Source: an uncultured Christensenella sp.
Lineage (GTDB): Bacteria > Bacillota > Clostridia > Christensenellales > UBA1242
Reading direction: 5' to 3'
DNA length: 64,000 nucleotides
Assembly (NCBI GenBank): GCA_910586385.1
Contig: CAJUGX010000001.1
Span: 78,408 to 142,407 of the forward strand
Shown here: piece by piece, positions 1-19,432 of the stretch
Numbering within the stretch: the first letter of the stretch is position 1
Layout of the letters: each line of letters starts with the position of its first letter
The notes under the pieces: generated by a model
Told to the model about the DNA's origin: nothing
The model's input: only the letters and a program-made list of their open reading frames with translations
Database searches by the model: none
Program-made: the position numbers and the translations under genes

Positions 1-3000
1 CAGTCTCCTGGTAGACAATCTTGACAACCACTCCACCATCTGTGCCCGTTTGTGGAAGAGCAATTCTTATTTTGTGAGTGAGTTCGTTTTGTTCGTTTGT
101 CACAAATTCAATTCCCCCAACTGCTTCTGCACGGACAACATTCACTGTGCCGATTGAAGAGAGGATGTCTGTGTCACTCAAAGCACAAACGCCAATTGTA
201 AGCGTTCCACCATCAGCGACTTTGCTGTTGTAATCTTCTGGGGCAAGTTCAAACTTATACTTGTCATCGCTGCGAGCAATTGTTTCTGTTTTGTAGAACT
301 GTCCATTGAGATAGATGTCAAACTTTCTTGATTGCCCATAATTTCCAACAAATTCAACTGTTATTGTTGGAAGGTCGGAATCTGACAGGCCTGTTGAATC
401 AAATTCAGCATTTGTGATATTTGGAGTTGCAAATTTATTTACACTTGCCTTCCCTGCGTAAACATAATAATTGCATTCTGTTTTGCCAGTAGGAAGAGCG
501 ACATCTTTTGCATAATAGATTGTCTTTCCAGCAGCGACCGTGTATGTTGCATCGCTTGACGCCTCACCACTTATTGGGAATGTCTCAAGATATGCAGATA
601 CAGAAATTTCAACTTCTCCAGACAACGATTCAAGTGTGCCAAAAAGTTCTTTATTTGTTGTCAAGTTTTCGCTTGTCGCTGAAGTTTTGTAAGTTGCAAT
701 GTTTCCGTTTTCGTCAACAAACATCAAAACATATCTCAAATTGTTCAAATTTTCTGTTGCGCCAAACGCATTCCAAGAGATTGTGTTGTTTTCGTAACTT
801 ACACTCTCATCCACTGGTTTGAGCGTGCTCATCTTTGCAAGAGTCCAAGTCGTCTCTTGACTGTCAATGTAATAAGTTTTTTTGCCGTCGCTCTCTATCG
901 CCTTCTTTCCGACAACCTTGAGCGAGAGATTTCCGTCTTCTGTGATGTCAATCTTTCCAGTCTTGTTGTTTTCAATGCTGCTTGCACTTGTCACTTTCAC
1001 ATATTCAACAAAGTCCTTTTGCACAGAACTGATGTCATAGCCAAGACTTCCATCCTGAAACAATTTGAGTGAAGAAACACTGTCAAGCTTGAAAATTCTT
1101 ACAATGTTTGATGTGGATGATTGAACATAGTATGGGTTTTCAACAACCACTGAGAATTCGTAATATGTAGCATCGTCAAAATCGCTTCTTGCAAAACTCT
1201 TTGAAAGTGCGGAAATGCTTTCGCCAATCGCTTCACCGTTTATCAAAACTTGATATTTGGTTTCACTTTCATAAGATGCATTTGCCAAGACAGGTGACCA
1301 ATTCAAAACAAAATCTGTTGCTGATACATCAAGGTCAAGCTCAAGTGCTGTTTCTGGCATCTTTTCAACAACGCAAACAATCTCGCTGTTGTCAAGATTT
1401 GTTGTTGCAAAGTCAGAGCAGATTGTCACATTTTTGCCATCAACTCTGTTTTGGTGTGCATAAACTGCGAATCCAACTTTTGCACTCTGATTGTAAACAT
1501 TTGCAAATGCTGGGATTTTTTGAAGTTCTGTAATTATCTTTTCAAAATCAATTGTCACAACATTTCCAACTGTGTCAACAAAATTGCCTTCTTCGCTTTC
1601 AATTGTTTCCAAGACATCTGCATATTGAGCGGTTGCAGTCTTTCCAAGTTTAACCACGATGTTTTCCGCTCTGCCATTGAGCCCAACACAAACGATTGTC
1701 AAAACATAATAGTCAGTTGTTGTCGTCGCTGTGTGGTCAAATCTGAGGTTTCCTTTGTAATAAGCAAGGTTTGTTGGTTTTTGAACACGAGTGAAAACAA
1801 AGTCAGGTGGCACAGCAGTCTCTTCGCTGTCCAAATAAACCTTTCCGTTTTCTTTCACGTAAACACCATTTTTAAGTTCGGAACCAAAGTATTTGAAGTT
1901 GAGTTCGAAGTTTGATTTTGCAGCAATAGGGATACGTGCAACTTTTTCAGTCTCGCTTCCGCCAGATGTGCCTTCCCCCCAAATCTTCACACCTCTCGCA
2001 CCAGTGATTGCATTCACACTCAGCTCTTGCTTTGTGCTTTGTGCTGACATGGTTGTTGGATTTACCTCAAGTGCGAAATCGCTTATATTGATGTCACTGC
2101 TTGAAACCTTTCTCAATCTCTCAACAGCAAGTTCATATGCAAGACTTGCGTTGTATATTTCTTCGTTTTCAGAATGTGCCACAACTGAAATTTTGTATTC
2201 TGAGCCAGGATTGTTGAGTGCATCAGAAATCAAAAATTCCGTTGTCTGTCCGCTTGCAATCGCTGGCCTTCCAATAGAAGTATCATTCAAAAGGACTTCA
2301 TAGGAGGTGACATTTTGTCCATTTTCGATTGAGATATAGAAACCATTGTCACCTTTGCCAAGTTCAACATTTTCAACCTCAAGTCTTTCACAAATGTAGA
2401 AAACTTCCTCAAGTGCTTCACTGGAAGAGATGTGAGAATCCTCGTCACCAGTCAAAGCAAAAACTTTCACATAATAATATCCAACTTCGTCAATGTCAAT
2501 CTGAAGACCATCTGTCACCTTTCCAAGATTTTCAAGGCCTGCAGTTTGGATGTTGATTTGTGAAGCATTTTTGTTTGCATCATAGATATTCTTGTCAATT
2601 TTGAAAAGTTGAACTTCATAACCCTCAGCCCCATTTGCACCAGTCCAAGAATAGACTTTGGAACTTGAGTTTCCTGCATTTGCTGTCTGTGGAGCGCTGA
2701 GCATTTCAATTTGTTTTTCAACAGTCTCGTTGATTGAATTTTCTTCAGTCTCGCCTTTGCAAACAATTTTCAAATCGAAGATGTTTTTGCCATTGCTGAA
2801 TACTGTCTCAAACAAATCTTCAAGTTTTCCATTCAGGACGATTTCAACATCATCTCTTCCAACTTCCACTTTGGAAATCTTGTTTGCCAAAACATCTTTG
2901 TATCCGCTTCCCTCATTAACTTGCAAAACATAGTTTTTTCCAAACCTTGTTTTTGCAAAAGTCAAAACAGAATATCCGTCCTTGTTGTAAGAATGCCTAA

Positions 3001-5231: not shown

Positions 5232-6050
5232 TTAAAAATCCAACCACTTAGGCTTTTTGACAAGAGTTTTGCCGTCAAGTCCTTTGATTTTGATATCCTC
5301 AAAAGTCATCTTGAAACACGCAAGTTTTTGCCTTGACATACCAAACTTTTTGTTGTCTTCATTTTTTCCATACTTGCCATCCCCAATGATTGGATGTCCA
5401 AGATATGCCAAGTGCGCTCTGATTTGGTGAGTCTTACCTGTCAAAAGTTCGATCTCGACGAGACTGCTCTCTTTTGCATGCTTGATTGTATTGACTTTTG
5501 TTTGGATTTTGACAGTCCCATCTTTTTTCTTATCAAATATCTTTACAAGCGATTTTTCATCATCCTTCGCTAGATATGCAGAGAAAATCTGCGACTTGAC
5601 ATCAAAATCACCCACAACCTCCGCCACATAAAACTTGTGCACACCTTTCCCCTTGAAAGCAGACAAGAGTTTTTTCTCCGCCTCGGTGTTTTTCGCAAAG
5701 ACGACAAGCCCCTCAGTGTTTCTGTCTAGCCTATGCACAGCAATGGCATTTGGCACAACACTTTCAAGCCCATTCTCGCCAGACGTCTCAATCCCCACTT
5801 TCTTGTAGACAATGACAACATCCGCATTCTCATAAACAACATCATACTTCTTGCCAAGCATATCATCAGAATAGAAAAATGTCACTTTGCTTCCACTCTC
5901 AATTACAACATTTTCTCTTTCAACATTGCCATCAACTTTGACATCTTTGCTTCTGAGCATCTTGTTTACATCCGCAAACGAAAAGCCATAGTCCTGCAAA
6001 ATCGTCACAAGTTTTTTGTTTTTTTCTACTATAATCTCTTTCTTGTTCAT
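5232..6050 (-). CDS. RluA-family pseudouridine synthase with an N-terminal S4-like domain
   Basis: Motifs HRLDRNTEGLVVFAK and KTHQIRAHLAYLGHPIIGDGKYG. I place the start at MNKKEII (6050), because the upstream part of the listed ORF contains the promoter TATAAT (6058-6063). Confidence 0.88.
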   Translation of the reverse strand: MNKKEIIVEKNKKLVTILQDYGFSFADVNKMLRSKDVKVDGNVERENVVIESGSKVTFFYSDDMLGKKYDVVYENADVVIVYKKVGIETSGENGLESVVPNAIAVHRLDRNTEGLVVFAKNTEAEKKLLSAFKGKGVHKFYVAEVVGDFDVKSQIFSAYLAKDDEKSLVKIFDKKKDGTVKIQTKVNTIKHAKESSLVEIELLTGKTHQIRAHLAYLGHPIIGDGKYGKNEDNKKFGMSRQKLACFKMTFEDIKIKGLDGKTLVKKPKWLDF

Positions 6051-6103
6051 ATTGTATATTATAACGAAACCAAAAGTTTTTTCAAACAAAAAGGAGACAA
6101 AGC

Positions 6104-6352
6104 ATGGAAAACATCACAATCGAAAACAGAAATCAAATGTCAATAACCGGCGCAACAAAAATGATTTCATCAACAGACAATCAATCTGTGGTGGAAGTTG
6201 GCGATTGCAATATTATTATTTCGGGACAAAATTTGGAAATTACAAAATTAGATTTAGAAAATAAACAAGTAAATATTAAGGGAATAATAAATTCCTTGAA
6301 ATATTCACAAAAAATAGAAAAAAATAATATTTTTAAGAGGTTATTCAAATAA
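6104..6352 (+). CDS. yabP: Sporulation protein YabP
   Basis: 82 aa. ITIENRNQMSITGATKMISSTDNQSVVEVGDCNIIISGQNLEITKLDLENKQVNIKGIINSLKY matches the YabP pattern (L.I.GV..V.SFD...I.L.T..G.L.I.G..L.I..L.LE...L.I.G.I..L.Y). RBS AAAGGAG. Confidence 0.75.
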   Translation: MENITIENRNQMSITGATKMISSTDNQSVVEVGDCNIIISGQNLEITKLDLENKQVNIKGIINSLKYSQKIEKNNIFKRLFK

Positions 6353-6356
6353 AAAT

Positions 6357-6716
6357 ATGCTTTATGAAACATTATCTCAACCCGCTACACTCCTTATATT
6401 ATCGAGCATTGGGCTATTTTCGGGAATTATTTTTGATATAAAAAATATTTTAATATATTTATTCAAAAAAAATAAAATAATAAATCAAATATTATTATTT
6501 TTTTCAATTTTAATTTTATTTTTTATTTATTATTTAATAAATTTGAAAATAAATTATGGTGAAATTAGATTTTTTTCAATATTTATTTTTTTCCTTGCTT
6601 TTTCCATTGAACGTTTTTTTGTACAAAATTTTCTTGCAAATAAAATATTAAGGTGCTACAATAATTCAAAGGAAAAACGAAATGCAAAAAGAAAAAAAAT
6701 GGTGGAAAAACTTTAG
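6357..6716 (+). CDS. yabQ: Spore cortex biosynthesis protein YabQ-like membrane protein
   Basis: 119-aa polytopic protein immediately after yabP. It has G..FD motifs and ..NYGEIRFFSIFIFFLAFSIE (compare the YabQ N.GE.R.Y motif). The coding sequence is very AT-rich. Confidence 0.55.
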   Translation: MLYETLSQPATLLILSSIGLFSGIIFDIKNILIYLFKKNKIINQILLFFSILILFFIYYLINLKINYGEIRFFSIFIFFLAFSIERFFVQNFLANKILRCYNNSKEKRNAKRKKMVEKL

Positions 6717-6927
6717 TACATTTCAAATTGTTGCTTTTATTTTGACAATCTTGTTTGTCATAGGCACAATTGTCACCATTGCAATTTTGATAAACTTGAA
6801 AAACAAAATCGATGATACAAAGGACAAAAATGATCAACTTGAAAATATCATGAAAGACAAGAACCAAGACACTGATGCTCAAAGTTGGATGGCTTTGTAT
6901 GAAAAACAAATAACCGATTTCATTTGA
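6682..6927 (+). CDS. DivIC/FtsB-like septum formation initiator (single TM plus short coiled coil)
   Basis: 81 aa with a basic N-terminus, one TM (FQIVAFILTILFVIGTIVTIAILI) and a charged helical tail. Its position after yabP-yabQ matches the Bacillus gene order. Confidence 0.4.
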   Translation: MQKEKKWWKNFSTFQIVAFILTILFVIGTIVTIAILINLKNKIDDTKDKNDQLENIMKDKNQDTDAQSWMALYEKQITDFI

Positions 6928-6946
6928 TGAGACCGGTTATTTTTTC
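6910..6946 (+). terminator. Terminator of the yabP-yabQ-divIC unit
   Basis: ATAACCG-(17 nt)-CGGTTAT followed by TTTTT. Confidence 0.5.
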
Positions 6947-7144
6947 TAGCACATTTTCATAAAACAATCCAGACACCTTTGTCTCTTTCAGAAAGTCAAC
7001 AACCATCTGACCAACATCTGTGTTTTTTAGGACAAGCAAAAGCACAAGAGTACCTGCCACCAAAAACAACATGGTGAGCAATAATCCCTTAAACCATCCA
7101 CGAAAACAACATACAACCAAAAGGACAAGAACAACATAATCCAT
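6920..7144 (-). CDS. Small membrane protein, CvpA-like N-terminal region
   Basis: 74 aa. MDYVVLVLLVVCCFRGWFKGLL resembles the start of CvpA. Two predicted TM helices. Confidence 0.35.
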   Translation of the reverse strand: MDYVVLVLLVVCCFRGWFKGLLLTMLFLVAGTLVLLLVLKNTDVGQMVVDFLKETKVSGLFYENVLEKITGLIK

Positions 7145-7189
7145 AAAAGAGTTTTTGCCCTATTGCAAATTTGTAAACAAAAAAGATTT

Positions 7190-7741
7190 CTAATCAGAAA
7201 TCTTTTCTTCCATATTCTCCGTTTTGAAAACTTCTTCGCTTTTTGTCATTTCTTCTGTCACGCTCTCACCCTCACTTGGCGCTTCAATAGGTGAAACCAT
7301 AGACGAGAGATAGTTATATAGTTCATCCATATTTCCATCAATGACAGACAAATAGACACACCTGCCATCGAAAACACCTTTGTTTCCTCTCATCAAGTTA
7401 AATCCATAAAAATCCTTGCCTACCCCAAAAACAAGTTCGTCAAATGGAAGTTCGTTCAGCATATATGTTTGATCAAACTTTATTGAAACATAAATCCCAT
7501 TCTTGGTTTGTTCTTGAAAGATTTCCGGCGTTACAACGCCAAATGCAGGCATTGTGTGACAATTTGCAAACAACTCCTCAACTTTGGTTTTGAGTTCTTC
7601 CTTTTGGTCGATTGTCATTTCAATTGTCTTTCCGTCAACCATAACATCGTAATTTGCCGAATATGGCAAAACATCAACTGCTTCAAAAAGTGACATTATC
7701 ATCATTGGTACTCCCATAAAAAAGAAAAGTATTCTCCACAT
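7190..7741 (-). CDS. Hypothetical membrane-anchored/secreted protein with an acidic C-terminus
   Basis: 183-aa ORF with a hydrophobic N-terminus (MWRILFFFMGVPMMIMSLF). I recognised no motif. Confidence 0.5.
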   Translation of the reverse strand: MWRILFFFMGVPMMIMSLFEAVDVLPYSANYDVMVDGKTIEMTIDQKEELKTKVEELFANCHTMPAFGVVTPEIFQEQTKNGIYVSIKFDQTYMLNELPFDELVFGVGKDFYGFNLMRGNKGVFDGRCVYLSVIDGNMDELYNYLSSMVSPIEAPSEGESVTEEMTKSEEVFKTENMEEKISD

Positions 7742-7798
7742 AACAAAACTCCTTTGTTTCTATTTTGCTTTAATACTCTTCTTTATATTCATATATTT

Positions 7799-9625
7799 TT
7801 ATGCGTCTTGAAATTGGCTGTTGTAAAGGTCGGCATAGAAACCACCCTTCTCCAAAAGCTGTTCGTGATTTCCACTTTCAACAATGTCTCCATTTTTCAA
7901 AACGAGAATTATGTCTGCGTTTTTGATTGTTGAAAGTCTGTGTGCAATAACAAACGAAGTTCTTCCAGCTGACACCTTATCCATAGCCTTTTGAATAAGT
8001 TCTTCTGTCCTGGTGTCGACCGAACTTGTCGCCTCATCCAAAATAAGCATTGGTGCATTGTTTACCATGGCTCTTGCAATGGTGAGGAGTTGTCTTTGCC
8101 CTTGGCTTATGTTTGCCTTTTCATCGATAACCATATCATATCCATTTGGAAGAGATCTGATAAAGTGGTCGATGTGAGCAAAACTGCAAGCCTTTTCAAT
8201 TTCTTCATTGGTAAGTCCATAAGTCCCATAACTTACATTTTCTCTGATTGTGCCTTCAAAAAGCCATGCGTCTTGCAAAACCATGCCAAAGTATCCACGC
8301 ACTTCCTCTCTTGGCATATCTTTGATTGAAACGCCGTCAATCAAGATGTCTCCACTGTTGAGTTCATAAAATCTCATCAAAAGGTTTACAAGCGTTGTTT
8401 TTCCCGCCCCAGTAGGCCCCACAATTGCCACCTTTTGACCAGCCTTAACTTTTGCGCTGAAATCATGGATGATCACTTTGTCTGGGTCATAGCCAAAACA
8501 AACATTTTTGAATTCAACATTTCCCACAACTTTTTGAAGCTTACGCTCTTTATGCTCTTCTTCTTGCTCTTCTGCATCAAGAAACTCAAAGAGTCTTTCG
8601 CTGGCAGCAGCAGTTTGTTGGAGAGTGCTTGAAATGTTTGCAACATTGCTTACTTGGTTGTTGAATGTTCTCATATAAGTTATAAAAGTTACGATCGTTG
8701 CAGCATAAATTGGATCATTGTTCTTGATTGCAATATATCCACCCAAAATACAAATCACGATATAAGATGCGTTTCCGATAAAGTTCATGATTGGGTGCAT
8801 AAGACCACTAAGCACATTCGCTCTATAAGCGGATTTGAAAAGCATGCTGTTTGTCTTGTCAAACTTCACCTGCTCTTTCTTTTCTCCACTGAAAACTTTC
8901 ACAACATTGTGCGCTGAATAGACCTCTTCAATCTGCCCATTGATTTCCCCAAGTTCACTCTGTTGTCTTACAAAGTATTTCTGAGAAAGTTTTACAATAA
9001 TAAGCACAAGCCCGATTGAAATTGGCATGATTGCTATCACGACAAGGGTCATAAGCCAACTGTTGACAAACATCATGATCACTGAGCCAATTATCATCGT
9101 CACGCTTGAAATAACACTGCTCAAGCTGTTGCTGAGGCTGTTTCCAAGTGTGTCAACATCATTTGTCACGCGACTCAAGGTGTCGCCAATTGAGTTGTCG
9201 TCAAAATATTTGAGAGGGAGTCTGTTTATCTTTTTGCTGATACCTTCTCTATACTTCTTGGTTATGACAGCTGTCACCTTTGCCATAATAAAACTCTGCA
9301 AAAAGTTTAAGATACTGCTGCCAACATACATGCAGATGAGGATTATCCCAAAGTATGCAACCTTTGCCATGTCTATTGCAACATTTTCAAAACCAGCCTT
9401 TACAATGACTTCTGCAAGTTTTTTGATAATTGTTGGCGAAACAATGTTGAGCGTCGTGCTGGCAATTGCAAATGCCAACGACATGATTATGAGCCATTTG
9501 AAGCCAGACAATGATTTTGCAAGTCTGACAATGCTCTTCTTGAAATTTTTTGCTTTTTCACCTGTTACTCCACCTCTTCCCATAGGGCCTCGCATTGGAG
9601 CAACTTTTCTATTTTTTTGTTCCAT
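7799..9625 (-). CDS. ABC exporter permease/ATPase subunit. It has the consensus Walker B but a degenerate signature motif.
   Basis: N-terminal 6-TM domain. Walker A GPTGAGKTT, Walker B LILDEATSSVD. The signature is ISQGQ instead of LSGGQ. Confidence 0.9.
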   Translation of the reverse strand: MEQKNRKVAPMRGPMGRGGVTGEKAKNFKKSIVRLAKSLSGFKWLIIMSLAFAIASTTLNIVSPTIIKKLAEVIVKAGFENVAIDMAKVAYFGIILICMYVGSSILNFLQSFIMAKVTAVITKKYREGISKKINRLPLKYFDDNSIGDTLSRVTNDVDTLGNSLSNSLSSVISSVTMIIGSVIMMFVNSWLMTLVVIAIMPISIGLVLIIVKLSQKYFVRQQSELGEINGQIEEVYSAHNVVKVFSGEKKEQVKFDKTNSMLFKSAYRANVLSGLMHPIMNFIGNASYIVICILGGYIAIKNNDPIYAATIVTFITYMRTFNNQVSNVANISSTLQQTAAASERLFEFLDAEEQEEEHKERKLQKVVGNVEFKNVCFGYDPDKVIIHDFSAKVKAGQKVAIVGPTGAGKTTLVNLLMRFYELNSGDILIDGVSIKDMPREEVRGYFGMVLQDAWLFEGTIRENVSYGTYGLTNEEIEKACSFAHIDHFIRSLPNGYDMVIDEKANISQGQRQLLTIARAMVNNAPMLILDEATSSVDTRTEELIQKAMDKVSAGRTSFVIAHRLSTIKNADIILVLKNGDIVESGNHEQLLEKGGFYADLYNSQFQDA

Positions 9626-11424: not shown

Positions 11425-11456
11425 ATATTACCAAATAACCCGTTGACTTGTCAACG
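11425..11456 (-). promoter_or_regulatory. Promoter of the ABC exporter operon, with an overlapping palindromic operator
   Basis: The minus strand reads TTGACA-18-TGgTAATAT. The -35 element sits inside the perfect palindrome CGTTGAC-TT-GTCAACG (11441-11456). Confidence 0.45.
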
Positions 11457-11494: not shown

Positions 11495-11521
11495 TAAAAA
11501 AAGTTCATAACAGAACTTTTC
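11495..11521 (-). terminator. Terminator of the ESCRT-like operon
   Basis: The minus strand reads AAAAGTTC-tgttat-GAACTTTTTTT directly after the stop of the 1280-aa gene. Confidence 0.65.
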
Positions 11522-14500
11522 TTATTTCAAAGTAGGATAAATCCCAGAAATATCCCAAATTTTTGTGTCAAAGCCAAAGACATTCTGATTGAAGACTCTC
11601 ACATCTCTCTGCACTGCCGTGCTGTAGTTTGCAAGAGAAGTCAAGAATGGCTCAGGAGCAATAACTTTTTCAGTGCTGGTGAAAGAGTATGCTATCTTTC
11701 CACCCAAGCTTCCAACAAGCGAGCCCACTTTCATGCCATTTTCACAAGATATAGTCACCGTTGAATAGCTGTGGTTGATTGACTCCCCAACATTGCTGTT
11801 TAGGTATTTTCCATACAATCCCCCAACTGCTCCGTTTCTGCCAACAGCCATGACGTCGAGATTTCCAACACTGTAGTTGTTTTTACTTTCACTTCTTCCA
11901 TCTCCAACAAGCCCGCCGACATACATTTCATATGCGTTTCCGCTGACAGAATAATGAACTGTCGCTTTGTTTCTGCTGAGATCGAGATTACCTCCATCCA
12001 TACCTTCAAGAAGTCCAACCAGTCCTCCAATGTTCACGTCATCCGCATTTTTGGCTTCAAACTGGAATGATGTCTCAGCCTCATTTTTTATAAGCTTCGA
12101 ACTTCCACCGCTTCTTACAATACCAACAATTCCACCAAAGTTGAGTCCTGCACTTGTTGAGACAGCCTTTCCATTGAGCCCAACACTGCATCCTGAAATA
12201 GTCCCATCTTTCACCTTTGATGCAACTCCACCAAAAGTGAAGTTTTTGTTTGTCCTTACAATCAGGTCTCCTTCACAGCGCACGACACAATCTTTGATTG
12301 TTCCAGTGTTGCTCACTGCAATGCCTCCAAAATTGGAAACATTTTTATAAGTTGCTCCTGCGTAGTATATTCGAATATTTTCAATCGTTCCAGTGTTTGA
12401 ATAGAACAATGTGATGTTTTTATTTGACTTGACAGTTAAATTGGTTACGGATTTCCCATTTCCATCAAGTTTGCCCATAAATGCTGTTGGTTTCCATCTC
12501 CACCCGCTCATGTCGATGTTTTTTTCAAGACGCAACTCGGCATATGGAGCGTTGTGAATCAAACGATTAAACTCTTTTGCATTGTTGATTGTCACAACTG
12601 TTGGCATAAGGTAGAAACCAATGCACATCAGTGCGACATTCAAAAAACCAAATGTCATAAGAACGATGTTTGCAATCTTCCACCTCTGATGCATTTTTTT
12701 CTTTTTGAAAAGATAATATGACATGTGCACGATGGAAAAGAGTGCCCCAAGACAAACAAGAGCAATCACAAAGTTTTGGTTGAAGTACATATACACTTCC
12801 TTTGGAATCGCAATGATAACAATCAACAGTAATGTCGCAAACAGAACTGGGAAGATTTCCAAGAAACCAAACAAATATCTTCTGATAAACTTTTTTCGTC
12901 TTTCGGTCTCTTCGTCAACAACCACTGGTTCTGCATTTGTCTCTTTGGTCTTTCTGCGAGCATTTTTCGCTGAGAGTTTTTCTGCCTTTGCTGCTCTGAG
13001 CCCAGCTTCTCTTCCCTCAAGGTTTGTGACATTGATTGACATATCAAGTGTAAGATCAAGAAGGTCGAGTCTAGTTGCAATCTTCTTTGCAACGTCATTG
13101 TACTCTTCAAGTGTCAAATGCCCCTTAAGCCGAGTTACATAATTCTCAAAAGGTTCGAGTTGCAATTTGAAATAATTGGCCCCGCGAAGAACTCCTTTTC
13201 CTTCCTCTTTTGCCATCTCAAGCAAAATCTTGTTGTTTCTGATAAGGAAGTCGTTCAGCTTCTCAGCCAAATTTTTCTTGTCAAGCCACTCTGGAGCAAG
13301 TCCAGTCTTTTCCCCAGAATAAAGATTTGATTTGCTTATGATTGCCCCGTACTTTTCTGCTTGTGACTCATCAGCACATGCGAGCAGACTCTCCCACTCT
13401 GGCATCTGTGAAACCTTGACATTTGTTTTGACAAGTTTCGCTTCTGAGTTGCAGTGACACTTTATCTGAATCAAAATCCAATAAAGCTCTGCATCGGTTT
13501 TGTTTTTTGAAATTGCAATGGCAATATATTTTTCTGCTGCAACATAGAATCTCATTTGTTGGAAGTGCAATGCAACAGTCTTCAATATCTGTGAGAGTTT
13601 GATATCGTCCTCAACATAAGCGAGGTAAAAATCCAACTGCTCTTGCGTTTTCTTCATATCAACATAACAAATCGGCAAAATCATGTTTATCACAGCAGAG
13701 ATAAGTTGTGCGCGCTTGTCCGCATTGAGATACTTGAGAGTATTTTCAACAACATCCTTTTTTCTGAATGACAATTTTGACTCAACATCTTTGAAGTTTT
13801 TCAAAAGGATTGCGATGTTGCTCTGCTCATGACCTGCGTCAATGTCCAACACTTTCTTATAATAGTTGTCGTCTCCGCTCTTTTGAGCAAGCAAGAAATA
13901 GAAATTTACAAATCTGTCAACATCATTATTTTGGAAACACTTAAGCACTTTCTCTATCAACGATTGATCAAGAGTGTCCAGTGCTTTGTTTTCTGCTGCA
14001 GTGACAAGTTTGTCTCTGTTTGGCGTGTTGTATTGTGCCAAATATAATAGGAAAGAATTGTAATATTCTTCGCTGTCAAGACTGATGATAAGATTGCTCC
14101 AGTTGTCAACAATCATCTCGGCAAAGTCTTTTGGGGCATACTTAAGAATGTTGTCAAGCCTATCCTTCTCTTTGAAGTTTGCAATGTCTGAGAAGAATTC
14201 CCCTGCCGTCCTTACCTTATAATCACACAACAAATCAGCAAACAACAATTCGGCGTTGTTTGGATCTTTTTCGAGTTCTTTTTTTGCGAGATCTTTGGCA
14301 GACTCAAAGTCGCCATTTTTCAAACTGATGAAAATCCATCTGTTTCGGTTTGCCCCAGTCAGCTCGATGTTTTCAACTTTATAATTCCCAAGTTCGGTTG
14401 TAGAGACACTTTCAACGTCAACCTTGGCTTTCTTGACTGAAGAAACTTTGTCAAGTTTGACTTTTTCAATCTTTGCAACTTGACTGACAGACTTTTCTTT

Positions 14501-15364
14501 CTCTGTCTTGATTTTGAGCATCAACTCATCAACAACGCCAACTTCAGACAAATCAACAACACTCTTGATTCCCGCAAATTCTTTAGGGAGATTTTGCATT
14601 GTCACGCCATTGTCAAAAGCAACAACAAAACTTGTCGCGGTCTTTTCTTTTTGAGAAATGAAATATCTGTATCTGTCAAAAAGGTTTTTGATTTCTGGGT
14701 CATTGTATCCAGTCGTCTTGTTTGCGTACAAAACAAAGACTTTGGCTGTTTTGAGTGCATTGAAAGACTCTGATTCGTTTTCTTTGCTGAGCCCTTGCAC
14801 AAAATAAGTTGAGATATCTTTCTCCTTAAGCGAATCGATGAGATTTGTTATCTTTTCGTTTGGATTTGCCTTATCATAGCCCGTCGCACACAACACGACA
14901 TCAAAACTTTCTTTTCCAACCACGTTTTGATATCCATCAACCATTTTGTCAACCATGCGAGATATCTCATTGTAAGTCTTTGCAGTGTCCTCTGGTGCAT
15001 TTTCAACCGCACTTTTGAAATCATCATCTTCACTGATTTTTACAATTTTATCGCCAAAAAAACGAGGCTTCTTGACCGAAGTCCCTCGTCTTGAATATAA
15101 AACTATTTTATGTTTTGCCAAGACTTTTCCAAGGTAAGCTTCAAATGACAAAGGATACATTGACAAGATTTTGTCAAAATCATCCATCGCATCAGCAAAC
15201 TTGAATTGCCTCAGTTTCTCGTAAGCCCAAACTGTGAGAGCATCTTCTTCTTTTGAACCGTGTTCGTCGACATAGAGAGTACCACAAAACTGGCATTTAA
15301 CCATGTTTTGCCCAACAACGACATATTGTCTTCCTCCACAGTTTTTACAAACACGCTCTCTCAA
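11522..15364 (-). CDS. 1280-aa multidomain membrane protein: Zn-ribbon, TIR-like (flavodoxin-fold) domain, TPR-like helical region, 3-4 TM helices and an extracytoplasmic GLUG-repeat beta-helix
   Basis: TTG start with a GAGGG RBS. The Zn-ribbon is CKNCGG..x13..CQFCG. Residues about 163-260 (FDVVLCATGYD..KVFVLYANKT) look TIR-like. The hydrophobic block maps to about nt 12590-12890. The C-terminus has 7 repeats of the type FGGIAVSNTGTIKDC / IGGLVGLLEG / VGGLVGDG. Confidence 0.7.
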   Translation of the reverse strand: MRERVCKNCGGRQYVVVGQNMVKCQFCGTLYVDEHGSKEEDALTVWAYEKLRQFKFADAMDDFDKILSMYPLSFEAYLGKVLAKHKIVLYSRRGTSVKKPRFFGDKIVKISEDDDFKSAVENAPEDTAKTYNEISRMVDKMVDGYQNVVGKESFDVVLCATGYDKANPNEKITNLIDSLKEKDISTYFVQGLSKENESESFNALKTAKVFVLYANKTTGYNDPEIKNLFDRYRYFISQKEKTATSFVVAFDNGVTMQNLPKEFAGIKSVVDLSEVGVVDELMLKIKTEKEKSVSQVAKIEKVKLDKVSSVKKAKVDVESVSTTELGNYKVENIELTGANRNRWIFISLKNGDFESAKDLAKKELEKDPNNAELLFADLLCDYKVRTAGEFFSDIANFKEKDRLDNILKYAPKDFAEMIVDNWSNLIISLDSEEYYNSFLLYLAQYNTPNRDKLVTAAENKALDTLDQSLIEKVLKCFQNNDVDRFVNFYFLLAQKSGDDNYYKKVLDIDAGHEQSNIAILLKNFKDVESKLSFRKKDVVENTLKYLNADKRAQLISAVINMILPICYVDMKKTQEQLDFYLAYVEDDIKLSQILKTVALHFQQMRFYVAAEKYIAIAISKNKTDAELYWILIQIKCHCNSEAKLVKTNVKVSQMPEWESLLACADESQAEKYGAIISKSNLYSGEKTGLAPEWLDKKNLAEKLNDFLIRNNKILLEMAKEEGKGVLRGANYFKLQLEPFENYVTRLKGHLTLEEYNDVAKKIATRLDLLDLTLDMSINVTNLEGREAGLRAAKAEKLSAKNARRKTKETNAEPVVVDEETERRKKFIRRYLFGFLEIFPVLFATLLLIVIIAIPKEVYMYFNQNFVIALVCLGALFSIVHMSYYLFKKKKMHQRWKIANIVLMTFGFLNVALMCIGFYLMPTVVTINNAKEFNRLIHNAPYAELRLEKNIDMSGWRWKPTAFMGKLDGNGKSVTNLTVKSNKNITLFYSNTGTIENIRIYYAGATYKNVSNFGGIAVSNTGTIKDCVVRCEGDLIVRTNKNFTFGGVASKVKDGTISGCSVGLNGKAVSTSAGLNFGGIVGIVRSGGSSKLIKNEAETSFQFEAKNADDVNIGGLVGLLEGMDGGNLDLSRNKATVHYSVSGNAYEMYVGGLVGDGRSESKNNYSVGNLDVMAVGRNGAVGGLYGKYLNSNVGESINHSYSTVTISCENGMKVGSLVGSLGGKIAYSFTSTEKVIAPEPFLTSLANYSTAVQRDVRVFNQNVFGFDTKIWDISGIYPTLK

Positions 15365-15367
15365 CTT

Positions 15368-16516
15368 TTAACCCTCGTTTTTGTTCTTTTTTATGTAACC
15401 GCTGACCTCATTGTTGTAATCATCAAAGAGTTTGATTTCTTTTGGAGTCACGCTTGGTGGCATAACCCCCAAAACCCTGTCAAAGTCAGCATTTGTAACT
15501 TTGATGATGGAATCTGTTGCGATTGCTTCAAGAAGAGGCTCATCCTTTGCTCTATCACAAAGTTCTTCAATGTCCGCACCGCTATAATTTTCTGTCTGCT
15601 CAACGATCTTGTCAATGTCAAAGTCGTCAGAAACAGGCACATTTTTCATGTTTTTCTCAAGCATAAACTTTCTTGCAGGAGCATCAGGAAGAGGCAAATA
15701 AATCTTTTGCGAAAACCTTCCAGAACGCATTGCAGCACTGTCAATGTCCCATGGTCTGTTTGTTGCACCCAAGAGAAGAAGGTTTTGATTTCGTCCAGCA
15801 AAACCATCAATCTGTTGCAAAAACTCGTTTACACGCTTGTTGTTGTGAGTGTCATCACCACGCTTCCCCAAAAGGTTGTCCATCTCATCAATAAAGATGA
15901 TTGCACGGTCTTGTTTATTTGCTTCTTCAAAAAGCGAATTGATGTTTTTCTCACTGTCACCAACCCACTTGCTGACAATGTCAGAGCCTTTGACTGCATA
16001 AAACTTTGCTCCAACTTCGTTTGCAATCGCTTTTGCAATCATTGTTTTTCCCGTCCCCGGAGGTCCATACAAAAGCACACCGCCTCCGCTCTTTTTTCCA
16101 TACATCTTGTATTTGTCCGGATATTTGACAGGATTGATCATCCTGATTGTGATTGACTTCTTGACATCTTCAAGTCCAGCGACATCAGAAAACTTTATGT
16201 CAGGCACTTTTGCTGCCTGCCATTTTTTTACGTCATCATCTTCGCCCTCTGACGACTTGCCATCACCTTTCTTTTCCACCTTGATAGGTTTCTTTCCGAG
16301 ATTTTCTGACAAATCAACAAGCGTCCTCGCTCTTTCCATTCTTGCTTCTTTGAGTTTGCCTTGGCTTTGTTTTGCCATCTGCATCATTGTCTCGCCAGCA
16401 AGAAGAAAGTTCCTTTTTGCCAAAGTAAAGTTTCCCTTATCTTTTGCTTCCTTGCCCTTTCTCATATAAAGGTCAAATGTGTCAGACAAAACAGTCATGT
16501 TTGGTTGTTCTTTCAC
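15368..16516 (-). CDS. Vps4/CdvC-like AAA+ ATPase with an N-terminal MIT-like three-helix domain
   Basis: Walker A GPPGTGKT, Walker B IIFIDEMD, pore loop VSKWVGDSEK (compare Vps4 SKWMGESEK), ATNRPWDIDSAAMRSGRFSQKIYLPLPD. The N-terminal 75 aa (KGKEAKDKGNFTLAKRNFLLAGETMMQMAK..) are MIT-like. There are no TM helices and no protease domain. Confidence 0.8.
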   Translation of the reverse strand: MKEQPNMTVLSDTFDLYMRKGKEAKDKGNFTLAKRNFLLAGETMMQMAKQSQGKLKEARMERARTLVDLSENLGKKPIKVEKKGDGKSSEGEDDDVKKWQAAKVPDIKFSDVAGLEDVKKSITIRMINPVKYPDKYKMYGKKSGGGVLLYGPPGTGKTMIAKAIANEVGAKFYAVKGSDIVSKWVGDSEKNINSLFEEANKQDRAIIFIDEMDNLLGKRGDDTHNNKRVNEFLQQIDGFAGRNQNLLLLGATNRPWDIDSAAMRSGRFSQKIYLPLPDAPARKFMLEKNMKNVPVSDDFDIDKIVEQTENYSGADIEELCDRAKDEPLLEAIATDSIIKVTNADFDRVLGVMPPSVTPKEIKLFDDYNNEVSGYIKKNKNEG

Positions 16517-16565
16517 CTTAAATCTCCTGTCATACTTCTAAATAAGTTTCAATTTGAAAAAGTTG

Positions 16566-17162
16566 TTAGTTTGAAGCAGAGTCAATCTTCTTTCTGAGTT
16601 CTTCCATTTCCTTGTCAATGCTTTCGCTTGAAAGGCTATCAAGGCTTGCTTGTTCTTCAATAAACTTTGCAAATTCTGCATCTGTCATCTCTGCACCTTT
16701 CTTGTCTTTCCCAGCATTGTAGAACACCTCTTGGCTCATGTCCATGAAGTTGTCCATTTGATCTGTTTGAGTCTCAACTGCAGACATTGCAGCCTCAAAT
16801 TGAGCTTGAATCTTTGCAAATTCTTTTGCATCAGCAAGTTTTGTCATCTCTTTGCTGATGTCGCTCATCCCTCTAAGGAAATCAGAAGTCATCATTGTGA
16901 CATCTTTCATCTGAGCAGTGATTTCAAAGTTGAGAAGCATCTCTTGTGCTCTTCTTTGTTGTTGAACAGTCATCTTATAACCACTGAGTGCAAGTTTGTA
17001 TTGTGCGTCAAGAGACTTTTCTTTCGCTCTTTTTGCAGCATCAATAAACACTTGTTTTTGATCCTCAAGTTTGTTGATTTGTTTGTTCATAGTGTTGATA
17101 GTTCTTTTTACCAACATCTTCTTTTCAATTTCTTTTTGTTGTTTAGTTTTGAACAATCCCAT
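16566..17162 (-). CDS. ESCRT-III superfamily protein, Vps2/Vps24/CHMP1-3-like
   Basis: 198 aa. The N-terminus MGLFKTKQQKE is followed by a basic helical hairpin, then ..MKDVTMMTSDFLRGMSDISKEMTKLADAKEFAKIQAQFEAAMSAVETQTDQMDNFMDMS.. (compare CHMP1/2 ..KSM..MN...I...M..FE.Q.E..D...E.M.D..). It has an acidic tail and a C-terminal amphipathic helix DKEMEELRKKI. Confidence 0.75.
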   Translation of the reverse strand: MGLFKTKQQKEIEKKMLVKRTINTMNKQINKLEDQKQVFIDAAKRAKEKSLDAQYKLALSGYKMTVQQQRRAQEMLLNFEITAQMKDVTMMTSDFLRGMSDISKEMTKLADAKEFAKIQAQFEAAMSAVETQTDQMDNFMDMSQEVFYNAGKDKKGAEMTDAEFAKFIEEQASLDSLSSESIDKEMEELRKKIDSASN

Positions 17163-17163
17163 T

Positions 17164-17778
17164 TTATTCCTCCATCATCATTTTTTTCTTTTTGTTTGCA
17201 GAACTTTCTTTTTCTCTTTCTGAGAAAAGTTCTTGCTCATCAGCCAATTGATTTTCCTTTTCAAAAATTGTCAAGATATCCTCTTCACTTTTGTTTACGC
17301 CATAGATTGGTTGATTGAGATCATACGCTGATTGCACTTCTGAGAAAACCTCATCCGCACTGGTAAGCACATCTTCACTTGAAATTCTTGTTTCAAGCGC
17401 TTTATTCAAAAACTTTGCAAGTCCAAGTTGATCTTTCAAAAGTTCTGAAAGAGGCACTTTCGTTTGAGTTTTGAAGAAAGTATTGCTGTCAAATGCATCC
17501 TTAAGCTTTGTCATAAGCCTTATGTTGTAAAGCAAATACATTCCTCTTTCCATGCAAGTTTTCTTTTCCTCATTGAGGTGAGCAATCTTCTTTGCATAGA
17601 AAAGTTGCAAGTCTTTGTTTTTTTCATTTTTCCCTTTTTCCATAAGTGCATCGATCTCTTTGATCTTCTGGAAAACTTCCGCTTCAACAGTTCGCTCTTG
17701 CCTTTCGAGTTCGCAAATGGAATTGACCAAATCTTCTCTGTTGAGTTTTTTGAATTTGTTTCTCTTAAATAACCACAC
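17164..17778 (-). CDS. ESCRT-III superfamily protein, Snf7/Vps20/CHMP4-like
   Basis: 204 aa. MWLFKRNKFKK..EKGKNEKNKDLQLFYAKKIAHLNEEKKTCMERGMYLLYNI.. parallels Snf7 ..G.KNKR.AL..LKRKK..E.QL..I.G....IE... It has an acidic C-terminal half. Confidence 0.65.
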   Translation of the reverse strand: MWLFKRNKFKKLNREDLVNSICELERQERTVEAEVFQKIKEIDALMEKGKNEKNKDLQLFYAKKIAHLNEEKKTCMERGMYLLYNIRLMTKLKDAFDSNTFFKTQTKVPLSELLKDQLGLAKFLNKALETRISSEDVLTSADEVFSEVQSAYDLNQPIYGVNKSEEDILTIFEKENQLADEQELFSEREKESSANKKKKMMMEE

Positions 17779-17792
17779 CGCTTCTGCTCCTC

Positions 17793-18155
17793 CTAATAGT
17801 CATTGCCCATCACGATTTTGTTTACGCCTTCCAAAAGATCTTCATAGATTTTCTTTTGACCATCGTCTCCAAAGGTGAATGCGTTTTGGCACTCCGCCAT
17901 TGTCATAATGTCTTTGTAAGCCATTGGATCCTTGAGAAGTTCGCCCTCGTCTTTGATTTTGAGTTTGTACAACATCAATCCCCAATAGGCATCTGCACAC
18001 TTGCTGTCATACTGAAGAGCCAACAAAAAGTTTAACCTCGCTTGCTCAAACATACCTTCACTCAAATTGAGATAACCGAGTCGAAGTTCTTTCAACACCC
18101 TTGGTTGTCTCTCTGGCTTCACAGAGTCAGATGCTTGATACATTCTTACACTCAT
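17793..18155 (-). CDS. Small TPR-like helical protein
   Basis: 120 aa. ..GMFEQARLNFLLALQYDSKCADAYWGLMLYKL.. resembles the TPR segment near the N-terminus of the 1280-aa protein. ATGA overlap with the upstream gene. Confidence 0.5.
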   Translation of the reverse strand: MSVRMYQASDSVKPERQPRVLKELRLGYLNLSEGMFEQARLNFLLALQYDSKCADAYWGLMLYKLKIKDEGELLKDPMAYKDIMTMAECQNAFTFGDDGQKKIYEDLLEGVNKIVMGNDY

Positions 18156-18574
18156 GCTTGCTCTTCCTTCTTTCTTTGCACGATGTATGCTTCAACTTCT
18201 TCAAGCATTCTCATGCAAGTCTCTTGTGTGTTGTCTTTTGCAACGAGGATTTTCAAGTCATCAAGTTTGTTTGAAAGTTTTGCATCCACTGCCAAAACTT
18301 TTTGATTTGTTGTTGGATTGAAAAATCTTACATTGTCTTTCACTTCCACCAATCTTCTGCAAAGTTCGTCATTTCCATCCGCATAAACAATAATTGATTC
18401 AACATTTGCGACCATGTTTTCGATTGACTTTTTGTTTTTAAGCACTCCACGGCTTCCAACATCTTCTTTTTCGCCGCCAGCTGATTTGCTACCTTTTCTG
18501 CCGTATTCTCTCCACATAAAGAAACCGGCAAGACCAAGGACAGCAACCGCAACGATAACATAAACTACCCACAT
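18152..18574 (-). CDS. N-terminally anchored membrane protein with a cytoplasmic helical domain
   Basis: 140 aa. TM helix MWVVYVIVAVAVLGLAGFFMW, then a charged linker and a helical domain. Confidence 0.5.
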   Translation of the reverse strand: MWVVYVIVAVAVLGLAGFFMWREYGRKGSKSAGGEKEDVGSRGVLKNKKSIENMVANVESIIVYADGNDELCRRLVEVKDNVRFFNPTTNQKVLAVDAKLSNKLDDLKILVAKDNTQETCMRMLEEVEAYIVQRKKEEQA

Positions 18575-18583
18575 ATTTCCTCC

Positions 18584-19432
18584 TTATATCTTCTTTCCGC
18601 AATTCTGACAGAACTTGGCAGTTGCACTGTTTTCAGTGTTGCAATCTGGACAAATCTTTGTCCCACCAACTTTTCTTCCGCAGTTGTTGCAGAACTTTGC
18701 ATTCGCATTCAACTCTTCTCCACAGTCTGGACAATAAACCGCCCCCACACTTTTTGGAGCAGCAGGCTTTGCCCCGCCCTTGAAGTTTCCTGAGAGTTTT
18801 GCGTAATCAGCATCGTCAATGATAATATTTGCAATATTGAAAGAATAAACAGCGATTCCGTATTCTCCCATAAGTTTTTGATTGAGTTTTGTCAAAACCT
18901 TGGCAGAAATCTCTCTCTTCTTGACTGTGACTTGATTGAACAAAATTTCTTGAGCACTCACATACTCCACAACAACATTTTCAACGACAGACACAACTGT
19001 TGTTTGAAGTCTGTCTTGAAGATCCGCGGTTGTCAAATCGTTGTCCGCTCCAATCAGATAAAGATAACACTTTCTTGGATCACCAATCTGCACATCATAA
19101 TCGCCACTCATGCCAACTCGATAGTTTTCTTGCAGATTTGCATCATACATCAAAAACTTTTGAGCTGTCCCCCACAAGAGGTTGAGTTTTGCAGTCTTTG
19201 ACATAAACAAAACTTCCAAATTGCTGTCCATCTCGCTCTTGATGTCCACAAACTTGCTGACAAGATACTTGCCAGAAGACAATGTTTGAAGCATCTGCCC
19301 ATCTTTAATCAAAATAGCATTGTGCGTTTCTGGGACAAGCAGAGTTAGTTTTGGAGTCAATGTCTCAATTTTATGACGGTTGAAAAGCTGTTTGTTGTCA
19401 CCGGAAAATGTAATTACATTTTGTTCCATCAT
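18584..19432 (-). CDS. YdjI-type SPFH-domain protein (COG4260 'virion core protein'-like) with two C-terminal zinc ribbons
   Basis: 282 aa. ..LLVPETHNAILIKDGQMLQTLSSGKY..LWGTAQKFLMYD..YRVGMSGDYDVQIGDP.. follows the YdjI pattern. The C-terminus has CPDCGEEL..CNNCG and CPDCNTEN..CQNCG. The second ATG (19429) may be the true start. Confidence 0.7.
   Translation of the reverse strand: MMEQNVITFSGDNKQLFNRHKIETLTPKLTLLVPETHNAILIKDGQMLQTLSSGKYLVSKFVDIKSEMDSNLEVLFMSKTAKLNLLWGTAQKFLMYDANLQENYRVGMSGDYDVQIGDPRKCYLYLIGADNDLTTADLQDRLQTTVVSVVENVVVEYVSAQEILFNQVTVKKREISAKVLTKLNQKLMGEYGIAVYSFNIANIIIDDADYAKLSGNFKGGAKPAAPKSVGAVYCPDCGEELNANAKFCNNCGRKVGGTKICPDCNTENSATAKFCQNCGKKI

Follow-up and report, generated by a model that had tools for sequence, protein, structure and literature searches.

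Background

The partnership between an ESCRT-III polymer and a Vps4-like ATPase has been regarded in recent reviews as confined to archaea and eukaryotes; according to a 2025 review, a Vps4-like ATPase appears to be absent in bacteria, and the regulation of the bacterial polymers of the ESCRT-III superfamily is thus open (PMC7619361). In Bacillus subtilis, YdjI, a protein with the architecture of an SPFH domain plus a zinc ribbon (PMC11237479, PMC8581546), acts together with YdjG and YdjH to recruit PspA to the membrane (PMC8581546). The link between PspA and YdjI has also been noted by Ravi et al. (2024, PMC11237479), who described Vps4-like ATPases that were transferred to some bacteria, where snf7 was 'displaced' by a gene for a protein with TPR and six transmembrane (TM) segments, as well as sporadic, divergent bacterial Snf7 proteins encoded next to double-AAA ATPases. 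In this paper, we have analysed an operon of seven genes, called g1 to g7 here, which lies in a stretch of 64,000 nucleotides (nt) from an uncultured Christensenella sp. of the Clostridia (contig CAJUGX010000001.1, positions 78,408 to 142,407 of the forward strand); the whole of this stretch is referred to as the window. A prediction made earlier from the letters of the window alone, the original prediction, had taken the seven products for a bacterial ESCRT-III/Vps4-like system. Its observation was confirmed and its interpretation is largely supported by our analysis; its premise that only the PspA/Vipp1 branch is established in bacteria was slightly overstated, as sporadic bacterial Snf7 proteins and Vps4-like ATPases had been reported by Ravi et al. 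(2024, PMC11237479).

On balance, we favour the reading of the operon as one for a bacterial membrane-remodelling machine of the ESCRT-III/Vps4-like kind, arranged around an SPFH scaffold, whose likeliest role would be the repair of envelope or membrane damage, or membrane remodelling. A role linked to defence is possible in at least part of the family. The evidence for this reading comes from the products of g5 and g4, from the AAA ATPase encoded by g6, from the conservation of the operon among related genomes, and from the precedent of YdjI and PspA.

Results

The g5 protein and the Snf7/ESCRT-III family

Searches of Pfam, NCBIfam, PADLOC and the Protein Data Bank (PDB) with the single g5 sequence, and likewise with that of g4, gave no match, and the window g5 alone scored below Pfam Snf7. 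An exhaustive search with a g5 profile recovered 351 cluster representatives at E<=0.001, and when a profile of the family made from 97 diverse homologues was compared with the PDB, it matched CHMP2A with E=1.8e-6 over 144 collinear residues (7-150 against 4-143), followed, below CHMP2A, by CHMP1B (E=0.013) and then CHMP3 and Vps24. Furthermore, four relatives of g5 (P0255, P0391, P0392 and P0412) match the Pfam family Snf7 (PF03357). The AlphaFold2 model of g5, with a predicted local distance difference test (pLDDT) score of 83.7, consists of five helices (residues 7-48, 52-107, 112-152, 161-178 and 180-197), a layout that fits the ESCRT-III fold, in which a long hairpin of alpha1 and alpha2 precedes alpha3/4, alpha5 and a helix at the C-terminus. 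The top six matches of this model in a Foldseek search were made up of CdvB of S. islandicus, CHMP2A-CHMP3 and CHMP1B, with probabilities of 0.51-0.99, and PspA and Vipp1 ranked 21st or lower, behind the Snf7-type proteins. Likewise, neither g4 nor g5 matched PspA_IM30 in the Pfam search, and no PspA or Vipp1 chain was found among the PDB matches of the g5 profile; a PspA/Vipp1-type system was rejected because the PspA_IM30 signal was missing and Snf7-type proteins were closer. By profile and by model, g5 is thus a genuine member of the Snf7/ESCRT-III family that is closest to the Vps2/Vps24/CHMP1-3 type, the very type that had been proposed for it.

Both ends of the protein carry candidate motifs. 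For the C-terminal tail we used the consensus of the MIT-interacting motif MIM1, (D/E)xxLxxRLxxL(K/R), which is attributed to Obita 2007 and Stuchell-Brereton 2007. The conserved C-terminal helix of the g5 family fits this consensus (e.g. DEDIERRLQEIRGRR), and the window g5 carries a version of it that is shifted by one residue, DKEMEELRKKI. A loose form of the pattern was seen within the final 30 residues of 22 out of 100 representatives of the family, compared with a mean of 0.96 and a maximum of 6 in shuffled tails, and with 0-1 occurrences elsewhere in the proteins. At the other end, g5 begins with an MGLFK motif (MGLFKTKQQKE), which is reminiscent of the insertion motif at the N-terminus of CHMP3 and CHMP2B.

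A candidate second subunit, g4

The product of g4 starts with the motif MWLFK, and its AlphaFold2 model contains a helical hairpin (residues 14-51 and 55-97) that is the better predicted part of the model (pLDDT 71-88). BLASTP found no match between g4 and g5. Alignment of the g4 profile with the g5 family by hhalign gave E=2.6e-4 and a probability of 42%, end to end and collinear over 161 columns; under the control settings, the real score was 26.9, against 21.7 for the highest-scoring of the 32 controls, which had been reversed or block-shuffled. The top Foldseek match of the g4 model is the CdvB2 filament (probability 0.97, TM-score 0.41-0.45). In addition, the position of g4 is held in the distant locus L061 by a clear paralogue of the g5 family, and in L067 and L069 weak collinear matches are given by the gene found there, whose product begins with MGLF or FFGKLF. 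These results suggest that g4 is ESCRT-III-like and probably a divergent second subunit. It had been predicted more specifically as a Snf7/Vps20/CHMP4-like protein; for its being Snf7-like at all there is weak evidence from profile-profile alignment and fold comparison, and no sequence match in the PDB or Pfam.

The AAA ATPase encoded by g6

The g6 protein matches the Pfam families AAA (1.4e-42) and AAA_lid_3 (2.3e-10), and contains a Walker A motif (GPPGTGKT, residue 151), a pore loop (SKWVG, 182), a Walker B motif (IIFIDE, 206) and the motifs ATNRPW (251) and RSGRF (264). Judged by these motifs, it is an intact single-domain classical AAA ATPase in which all the catalytic motifs are present. 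Its C-terminus scores 18 bits against Pfam Vps4_C (PF09336), under the gathering score of 21.3, and the orthologue in locus L055 reaches 24 bits, above this threshold. Among the C-termini of the g6 family, 41 of 43 match Vps4_C at E<=0.01 (best 1.1e-6), the match being restricted to the helix half of the model (positions 28-59). The N-terminal domain of about 75 residues is kept in every ATPase of the family, including the distant ones. A profile of this domain matched the MIT structure 2mpk in the PDB with E-values that went from 0.34 to 0.011 and then 0.0037 as the diversity of the profile rose, and matched 2w2u, the MIT domain of Sulfolobus CdvC, with E=0.0044-0.0097. Of the proposed MIT-like plus AAA+ protein with a Vps4-type pore loop, the AAA domain and the KWVG loop were recovered, along with a Vps4_C-like helix, and the MIT-like N-domain is borderline.

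A side observation concerns the variety of ATPases in related loci. In locus L064 (4356-6725), two different MIT-like AAA ATPases are encoded in tandem, the one having the Cdc48-type R-P-G-R-F and a KWFG pore loop like the window g6, and the other the Vps4-type S-R-F-E-K and a KYVG pore loop; the ATPases of L061 and L063 are all of this latter type. Two ATPase subtypes thus exist in the family.

Conservation of the operon and its surroundings

The close homologues of the operon all come from metagenome-assembled genomes (MAGs) of uncultured gut Clostridia, several of which are named Candidatus Caccovivens. When one genome per species was kept, the scan of loci yielded 59 loci from 59 Clostridia species, and the order of the seven genes is preserved in nearly all of them; the few that depart from it are contigs cut short and a divergent clade into which genes have been inserted. 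This conservation of gene order is far beyond chance, and the possibility that these genes never co-occur in other genomes, named in the original prediction as a ground for refuting it, is not borne out. The surroundings are conserved as well, with the pair of downstream ABC-transporter genes retained in 43 loci and the small upstream gene for a PH-like protein in 45. Such synteny on both flanks indicates a stable chromosomal locus rather than a mobile island.

The genes of the operon differ in their rates of change. The median identity across the loci is 82% for g5, 80% for g4 and 79% for g6, against 51-53% for the flanking ABC transporters; g2 is present in 55 of the 59 loci with a median identity of 69%, and g7, with 42.5%, is the fastest-evolving gene of the operon. 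The operon genes are inherited together, and the conservation of g4, g5 and g6 far exceeds that of the neighbouring genes. A tblastn search with g5 found no match in the phage and plasmid collections, and the possibility of a mobile defence island was rejected on account of the conserved synteny and the native composition of the operon, whose GC content of 0.38-0.40 equals that of the flanks, in agreement with the resemblance to neighbouring genes that had been noted from a few samples.

The proteins encoded by g1, g2, g3 and g7

The architecture of g1, a Band_7_1 domain followed by two zinc ribbons (Table 1), identifies it as a YdjI-type SPFH/zinc-ribbon protein, as had been predicted, and the lack of any hydrophobic segment in its hydropathy profile indicates that it is soluble. 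By the same measure, the 140-residue g2 protein has one N-terminal TM segment (residues 1-24), the rest being helical and cytoplasmic; no family match was found for it in the Pfam, NCBIfam and PADLOC searches, and it is a candidate membrane anchor, in line with the earlier description. The TPR-like nature ascribed to g3 is backed by a marginal TPR_11 match in Pfam, which is below threshold (E=0.1). This gene is absent from the divergent variants L055, L056 and L058, and lies outside the conserved core.

The g7 product is predicted to be a protein with three TM segments that exposes a GLUG beta-helix outside the cell and carries zinc-ribbon, TPR and TIR-like modules inside. Neither Pfam TIR nor GLUG was detected in fragments of the window g7, and both were recovered only through homologues; the sole Pfam match of the TIR-like region in the window is Flavodoxin_3 (4e-4), below threshold. 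The L055 homologues of g7 match TIR_2 at 4e-10 and 2.6e-8, and these matches align over the TIR-like region of g7. The alignment shows that the glutamate of an 'RNEW' motif in the TIR relatives, which we infer to be the catalytic residue, is replaced by L, F, Y or V in the clade of the window, so that the TIR-like domain of g7 is probably non-catalytic in this clade. As for the C-terminal part, Glug (PF07581) was found in 18 of 24 homologous g7 domains (best 3.8e-11); the window g7 has no Glug match at E<0.1, but contains four xGG[LIV][VY]G motifs, and a profile of the extracellular domain found no match in the PDB. The TIR-like and GLUG assignments, which had been made from the window sequence, thus stand by virtue of the homologues, with the qualification that the TIR glutamate has been lost in the clade of the window.

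The wider family and its variant loci

Beyond the close relatives, nearly all of the distant loci with a g5 relative have a core in common, made up of the MIT-like AAA ATPase, at least one Snf7-like gene, between one and three small helical proteins, and an SPFH gene of the Band_7 or Band_7_1 type. In most of the distant loci examined the Band_7 or Band_7_1 gene lies beside the Snf7-like and AAA genes. In L061, Snf7-like genes and the ATPase are found, and no SPFH gene was seen at the locus. Two loci that carry the core, L067 and L068, belong to Planctomycetales MAGs.

The core is accompanied by varied additional genes. TIR proteins, with a genuine TIR_2 domain, are found in L055, L064 and L069, and proteins with leucine-rich repeats (LRR) of giant size together with an SNF2 helicase in L063 and L071; other accessories of the related loci are trypsin-like proteases and a BrxL-like Lon ATPase. 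In several related loci, moreover, the g5-type Snf7-like domain forms the N-terminal module of longer fusion proteins. In one type (P0177, P0179, P0182, P0187 and P0193) it is fused to FtsK_alpha and FtsK_SpoIIIE domains, and in another (P0180, P0186, P0192 and P0259) to RuvB_N and RuvB_C, some of the latter having a C-terminal NERD nuclease domain. Fusion genes occur inside SPFH, Snf7 and AAA operons at L063:8001-9863, L071:8101-9930 and L064:8001-9812.

Three of these loci deserve a brief description. At L064:12608-17812, a cluster encoding a cation P-type ATPase, four TerD proteins, C-C_Bond_Lyase, ATPgrasp_Ter and PRTase_2, i.e. a stress cluster of the tellurite-resistance type, adjoins the variant system of this locus. 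A compact version at L067:6119-12824 and in L068 consists of a GntR regulator, Band_7, three unknown proteins, the last of which starts with MGLF, a Snf7-like protein, the MIT-like AAA ATPase and a Memo-family protein. At L069:11981-16163, a TIR_2+FHA protein, a PP2C phosphatase and a Ser/Thr kinase of 700 residues are encoded directly after the AAA ATPase.

The PADLOC-DB v2 search returned matches for g6 only, to generic AAA models (IetA, 5e-41, and TRIP13), and no meaningful match for g1-g5 and g7. An IetAS system was rejected, the AAA domain being all that the two have in common.

Layout and signals of the operon

The seven open reading frames (ORFs) follow one another head to tail on the minus strand, at the coordinates that had been predicted (Table 1). 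The gaps between them, from g1 to g7, are 9, -4, 14, 1, 49 and 3 nt, so that the reported range of -4 to +49 nt was reproduced. The promoter-like site upstream of g1 is the top-scoring one of the region in a consensus scan, with 10 of 12 consensus positions and an extended -10 element; sites of this class are not enriched in the region (27 against 19.3 +/- 4.5 in shuffles). It is the site that had been proposed as the shared promoter. At the other end, a terminator-like structure was read where a terminator had been proposed. It is an AT-rich hairpin with an 8-bp stem, AAAAGTTC-tgttat-GAACTTTT, followed by a T run, and was missed by a scan of the region because its stem has fewer than three G-C pairs. 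Two antisense ORFs, 15260-16156 (+) of 298 residues and 16650-17318 (+) of 222 residues, overlap g6, g7, g5 and g4. They were judged to be non-genes, as their apparent tblastn conservation in all loci merely mirrors that of the conserved genes on the opposite strand.

Two observations outside the operon may be recorded. A second good promoter-like site, TTGACA-18-TG-n-TAATAT, lies at 11425-11454 (-) of the window, between the operon terminator and the downstream ABC-transporter gene, with a short inverted repeat overlapping its upstream end; it is consistent with the ABC transporter being its own transcription unit. Downstream of the ABC-transporter genes, the GC content of positions 6001-8000 is clearly lower than around them (0.306 against about 0.39).

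Table 1. Genes, predicted domains and signals of the operon (positions in the window; residues in the respective protein)
Feature	Positions (nt)	Residues	Strand	Description or basis
Promoter-like site	19501-19474		-	TTGACT-16 nt-TG-n-GATAAT, sigma-70-type, upstream of g1; consensus scan
g1	18584-19432	282 aa	-	YdjI-type SPFH protein, by architecture
g1 Band_7_1 domain		30-206	-	Pfam 4.1e-15
g1 two C-terminal zinc ribbons		231-281	-	Pfam Zn_Ribbon_1 3.3e-14, DZR 2.8e-10
g2	18152-18574	140 aa	-	single-TM protein
g3	17793-18155	120 aa	-	helical, possibly TPR-like
g4	17164-17778	204 aa	-	probable divergent ESCRT-III-like subunit
g5	16566-17162	198 aa	-	Snf7/ESCRT-III family member
g5 MIM1-like C-terminal helix	16593-16646	~173-190	-	pattern match
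g6	15368-16516	382 aa	-	single-domain classical AAA ATPase, by motifs
g6 MIT-like N-domain	16292-16495	~8-75	-	borderline profile matches
g6 AAA core		147-276	-	Pfam AAA and motifs
g6 lid and Vps4_C-like helix		298-372	-	Pfam Vps4_C
g7	11522-15364	1280 aa	-	predicted TIR-like/TM/GLUG membrane protein
g7 zinc ribbon		1-40	-	
g7 TPR-like region		41-95	-	TPR_14 4.6e-5 (Pfam)
g7 degenerate TIR-like domain	14495-14917	150-290	-	via homologues
g7 long helical/TPR region		291-825	-	
g7 three TM segments	12590-12889	829-926	-	hydropathy
g7 GLUG-type beta-helix, predicted extracellular	11525-12589	926-1280	-	via homologues
Intrinsic-terminator-like hairpin and T run	11495-11521		-	directly 3' of the g7 stop codon; read from sequence

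Discussion

A working model for the operon can be proposed as follows. The products of g4, divergent and B-type-like, and g5, A-type-like, would form a mixed polymer at the cytoplasmic side of the membrane by means of the basic M-x-LFK motifs at their N-termini. Recruitment and confinement of the polymer would fall to g1, the soluble SPFH protein, with g2 and/or g7 as its TM anchors. This role of g1 would parallel that of YdjI, which with YdjG and YdjH recruits PspA in Bacillus subtilis (PMC8581546). The MIT-like domain of g6 may bind the MIM1-like C-terminal helix of g5, and a hexamer of g6 may thread the subunits through its KW pore loop, leading to turnover or disassembly of the polymer, which in turn could drive the sealing, constriction or scission of the membrane. 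Finally, g7 might make the machine responsive to a cue from outside, for instance damage to the envelope, or a ligand or phage that meets the cell surface.

A number of results weigh against this model. The Foldseek E-values of both g5 and g4 are weak, all >=0.09 (about 0.09-0.24 for the top six matches of g5), as is usual for flexible helical proteins; the AlphaFold2 model of g4 as a whole is of low confidence (pLDDT 64.8), and the sequence and profiles of g4 match no ESCRT-III protein in the PDB and no Pfam family. Pfam MIT was not detected on the N-domain of g6, either alone or across 23 orthologues, and the PDB MIT matches of this domain reach only E~0.004-0.01, with TPR-like matches scoring similarly. 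The NCBIfam scores of g6 are higher for CDC48 (218 bits) than for CdvC (208.6) and for PAN and FtsH (~198), all being far under the equivalog cut-offs; its top PDB match is the D2 domain of p97 (198.8 bits), and it carries the Cdc48-type R-S-G-R-F motif. In sequence, the core of g6 thus appears no less similar to Cdc48 D2 than to CdvC and is not specifically Vps4-like, and the protein may be called 'Vps4-like' by its architecture and not by established orthology. The accessory TIR, protease, BrxL-like and NERD genes of related loci point to a role in conflict and not to housekeeping repair. Lastly, the MIT-MIM interaction, the polymerisation and the membrane binding of the system are properties that we infer.

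The same AAA core underlies a reading in which the operon has nothing to do with ESCRT, g4 and g5 being unrelated coiled-coil adaptors and g6 a Cdc48-like unfoldase that would extract, or control the quality of, membrane proteins which the SPFH protein organises. The failure of the single-sequence searches with g4 and g5 and the weak fold-search E-values would agree with it, but the g5-family profile reaches CHMP2A with E=1.8e-6 and several other ESCRT-III chains besides, relatives match Pfam Snf7, ESCRT-III chains head both fold searches, and the tail of the g5 family is MIM1-like and the C-terminal helix of the g6 family of the Vps4_C type; we hold this reading to be very improbable. Another concerns cell division, or a membrane fission of the sporulation type, coupled to DNA handling and analogous to the archaeal Cdv system. 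The fusions of the g5-type domain to FtsK/SpoIIIE and RuvB ATPase domains are a hint at links with DNA handling or division, conservation is very strong for the genes of the polymer and the ATPase, and the system is present in Planctomycetales, a part of the Planctomycetes, which are not known to have FtsZ and divide without it. However, nothing in the window ties the operon to division genes and no FtsK fusion occurs here, the context of SPFH, TM-sensor and TIR proteins fits stress sensing better, and the distribution is patchy within lineages and not universal, which leaves division or fission quite improbable as the role of this operon.

The accessory genes of the related loci keep alive a role in defence or conflict, with g7 sensing an attack at the cell surface and the ESCRT-III-like/AAA/SPFH module serving as effector or regulator, for instance through membrane sealing, exclusion or abortive membrane disruption, and in relatives together with TIR NADase, protease or nuclease effectors. 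The genuine TIR_2 domains, the trypsin-like proteases and the BrxL-like Lon ATPase speak for it, as do the NERD domain fused to Snf7-RuvB, the SNF2 helicase beside the LRR giants, the adjoining TerD cluster and the fast evolution of the extracellular part of g7. Nevertheless, we consider an anti-phage or conflict system unlikely. No PADLOC model was matched apart from the generic AAA match of g6 to IetA, and the locus, unlike a mobile defence island, is flanked by conserved synteny left and right in more than 40 species. The phage and plasmid collections yielded no copy, the composition is native, the TIR-like domain in the clade of the window is without the glutamate kept in Pfam-detectable TIR relatives, and purifying selection on the genes of the polymer and the ATPase is unusually strong. 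The strong conservation and the synteny favour a cell-biological role, that is, membrane repair or remodelling by an ESCRT-III/Vps4-like machine.

A broader proposal, to which we give somewhat less than an even chance, is that bacteria of at least the Bacillota and Planctomycetota own a genuine, vertically inherited machine of two ESCRT-III subunits and a Vps4-type ATPase, in which MIT and MIM recognise each other and ATP drives the turnover of the polymer, with an SPFH protein as the scaffold and a connection to TIR or TM sensors. If this is true, the pairing of ESCRT-III with Vps4 would not be an archaeal invention, but would either predate the split between archaea and bacteria or have been exchanged between the domains, and bacteria would use such a machine for membrane scission or repair, possibly within immunity. 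The combination of Snf7-type subunits with a MIM1-like tail and a MIT-like AAA ATPase in one conserved bacterial operon would offer a bacterial counterpart that can be tested directly; it would bear on the origin of the ESCRT-III/Vps4 pairing, and would link Snf7-type polymers with the SPFH-PspA connection already known. The TIR, protease and kinase accessories that recur, together with the fusions of Snf7 to FtsK and RuvB motors, suggest uncharted links among membrane remodelling, immunity and DNA handling. For the Planctomycetales version, a division or endomembrane role is worth considering, given the division without FtsZ mentioned above.

Comparison with known systems

In a literature search of incomplete coverage, no described bacterial system of Snf7, Vps4 and SPFH proteins was found, nor a related defence system. 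What we could not find described is the combination of two cytosolic Snf7-type genes, a single MIT-like AAA ATPase, an SPFH protein and a TIR-like/TM protein, in which the threads noted by Ravi et al. come together.

Like the ESCRT-III and Vps4 systems of archaea (Cdv), Asgard archaea and eukaryotes, the operon has one or two Snf7-family genes next to a single-domain AAA ATPase; g6 shares with Cdv/Vps4 a C-terminal helix of the Vps4_C type and may share the three-helix MIT domain, its own N-terminal domain being MIT-like, and g5 shares with Cdv/ESCRT-III the helix pattern and the M-x-LFK N-terminus, its C-terminal helix being MIM1-like. The order, with the ESCRT-III gene upstream of the ATPase, is that of archaea (Makarova et al. 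2024, PMC10936438). On the other hand, the host is bacterial, and there is no CdvA, ESCRT-I/II or winged-helix partner. The region of g6 after the lid is too short for the beta-domain of Vps4, its core, which has R-S-G-R-F, cannot be shown to lie nearer to CdvC than to Cdc48 D2, and the machinery is coupled to an SPFH protein and a TIR-like/TM/GLUG protein.

The 'Meth_adaptin' ESCRT systems of methanogens, which have an SPFH/zinc-ribbon component (Makarova et al. 2024, PMC10936438), may also be compared. FHA, kinase and phosphatase accessories are common to archaeal ESCRT loci and to L069, whereas the adaptin-appendage, GOLD and ProX components of the Meth_adaptin systems are lacking here and the host is a bacterium. 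With the pspA-ydjGHI operon of B. subtilis, the locus has in common a soluble Band_7_1 SPFH protein with zinc ribbons, an ESCRT-III-superfamily polymer, and TM/zinc-ribbon anchors; unlike that operon, its subunits are of the Snf7 type and not PspA_IM30, a dedicated AAA ATPase is present, and a YdjH with a TPM domain is not. In the bacterial operons of Ravi et al., snf7 is displaced, or Snf7 is membrane-anchored and occurs with a double-AAA protein, whereas the present locus, by comparison with their description, has two cytosolic Snf7-like genes with SPFH and TIR-like/GLUG proteins in Clostridia. It resembles their 'MIT+Vps4-AAA -> TPR+TM(s)' operons in that a large multi-TM protein with TPR is encoded directly after a MIT-type AAA ATPase.

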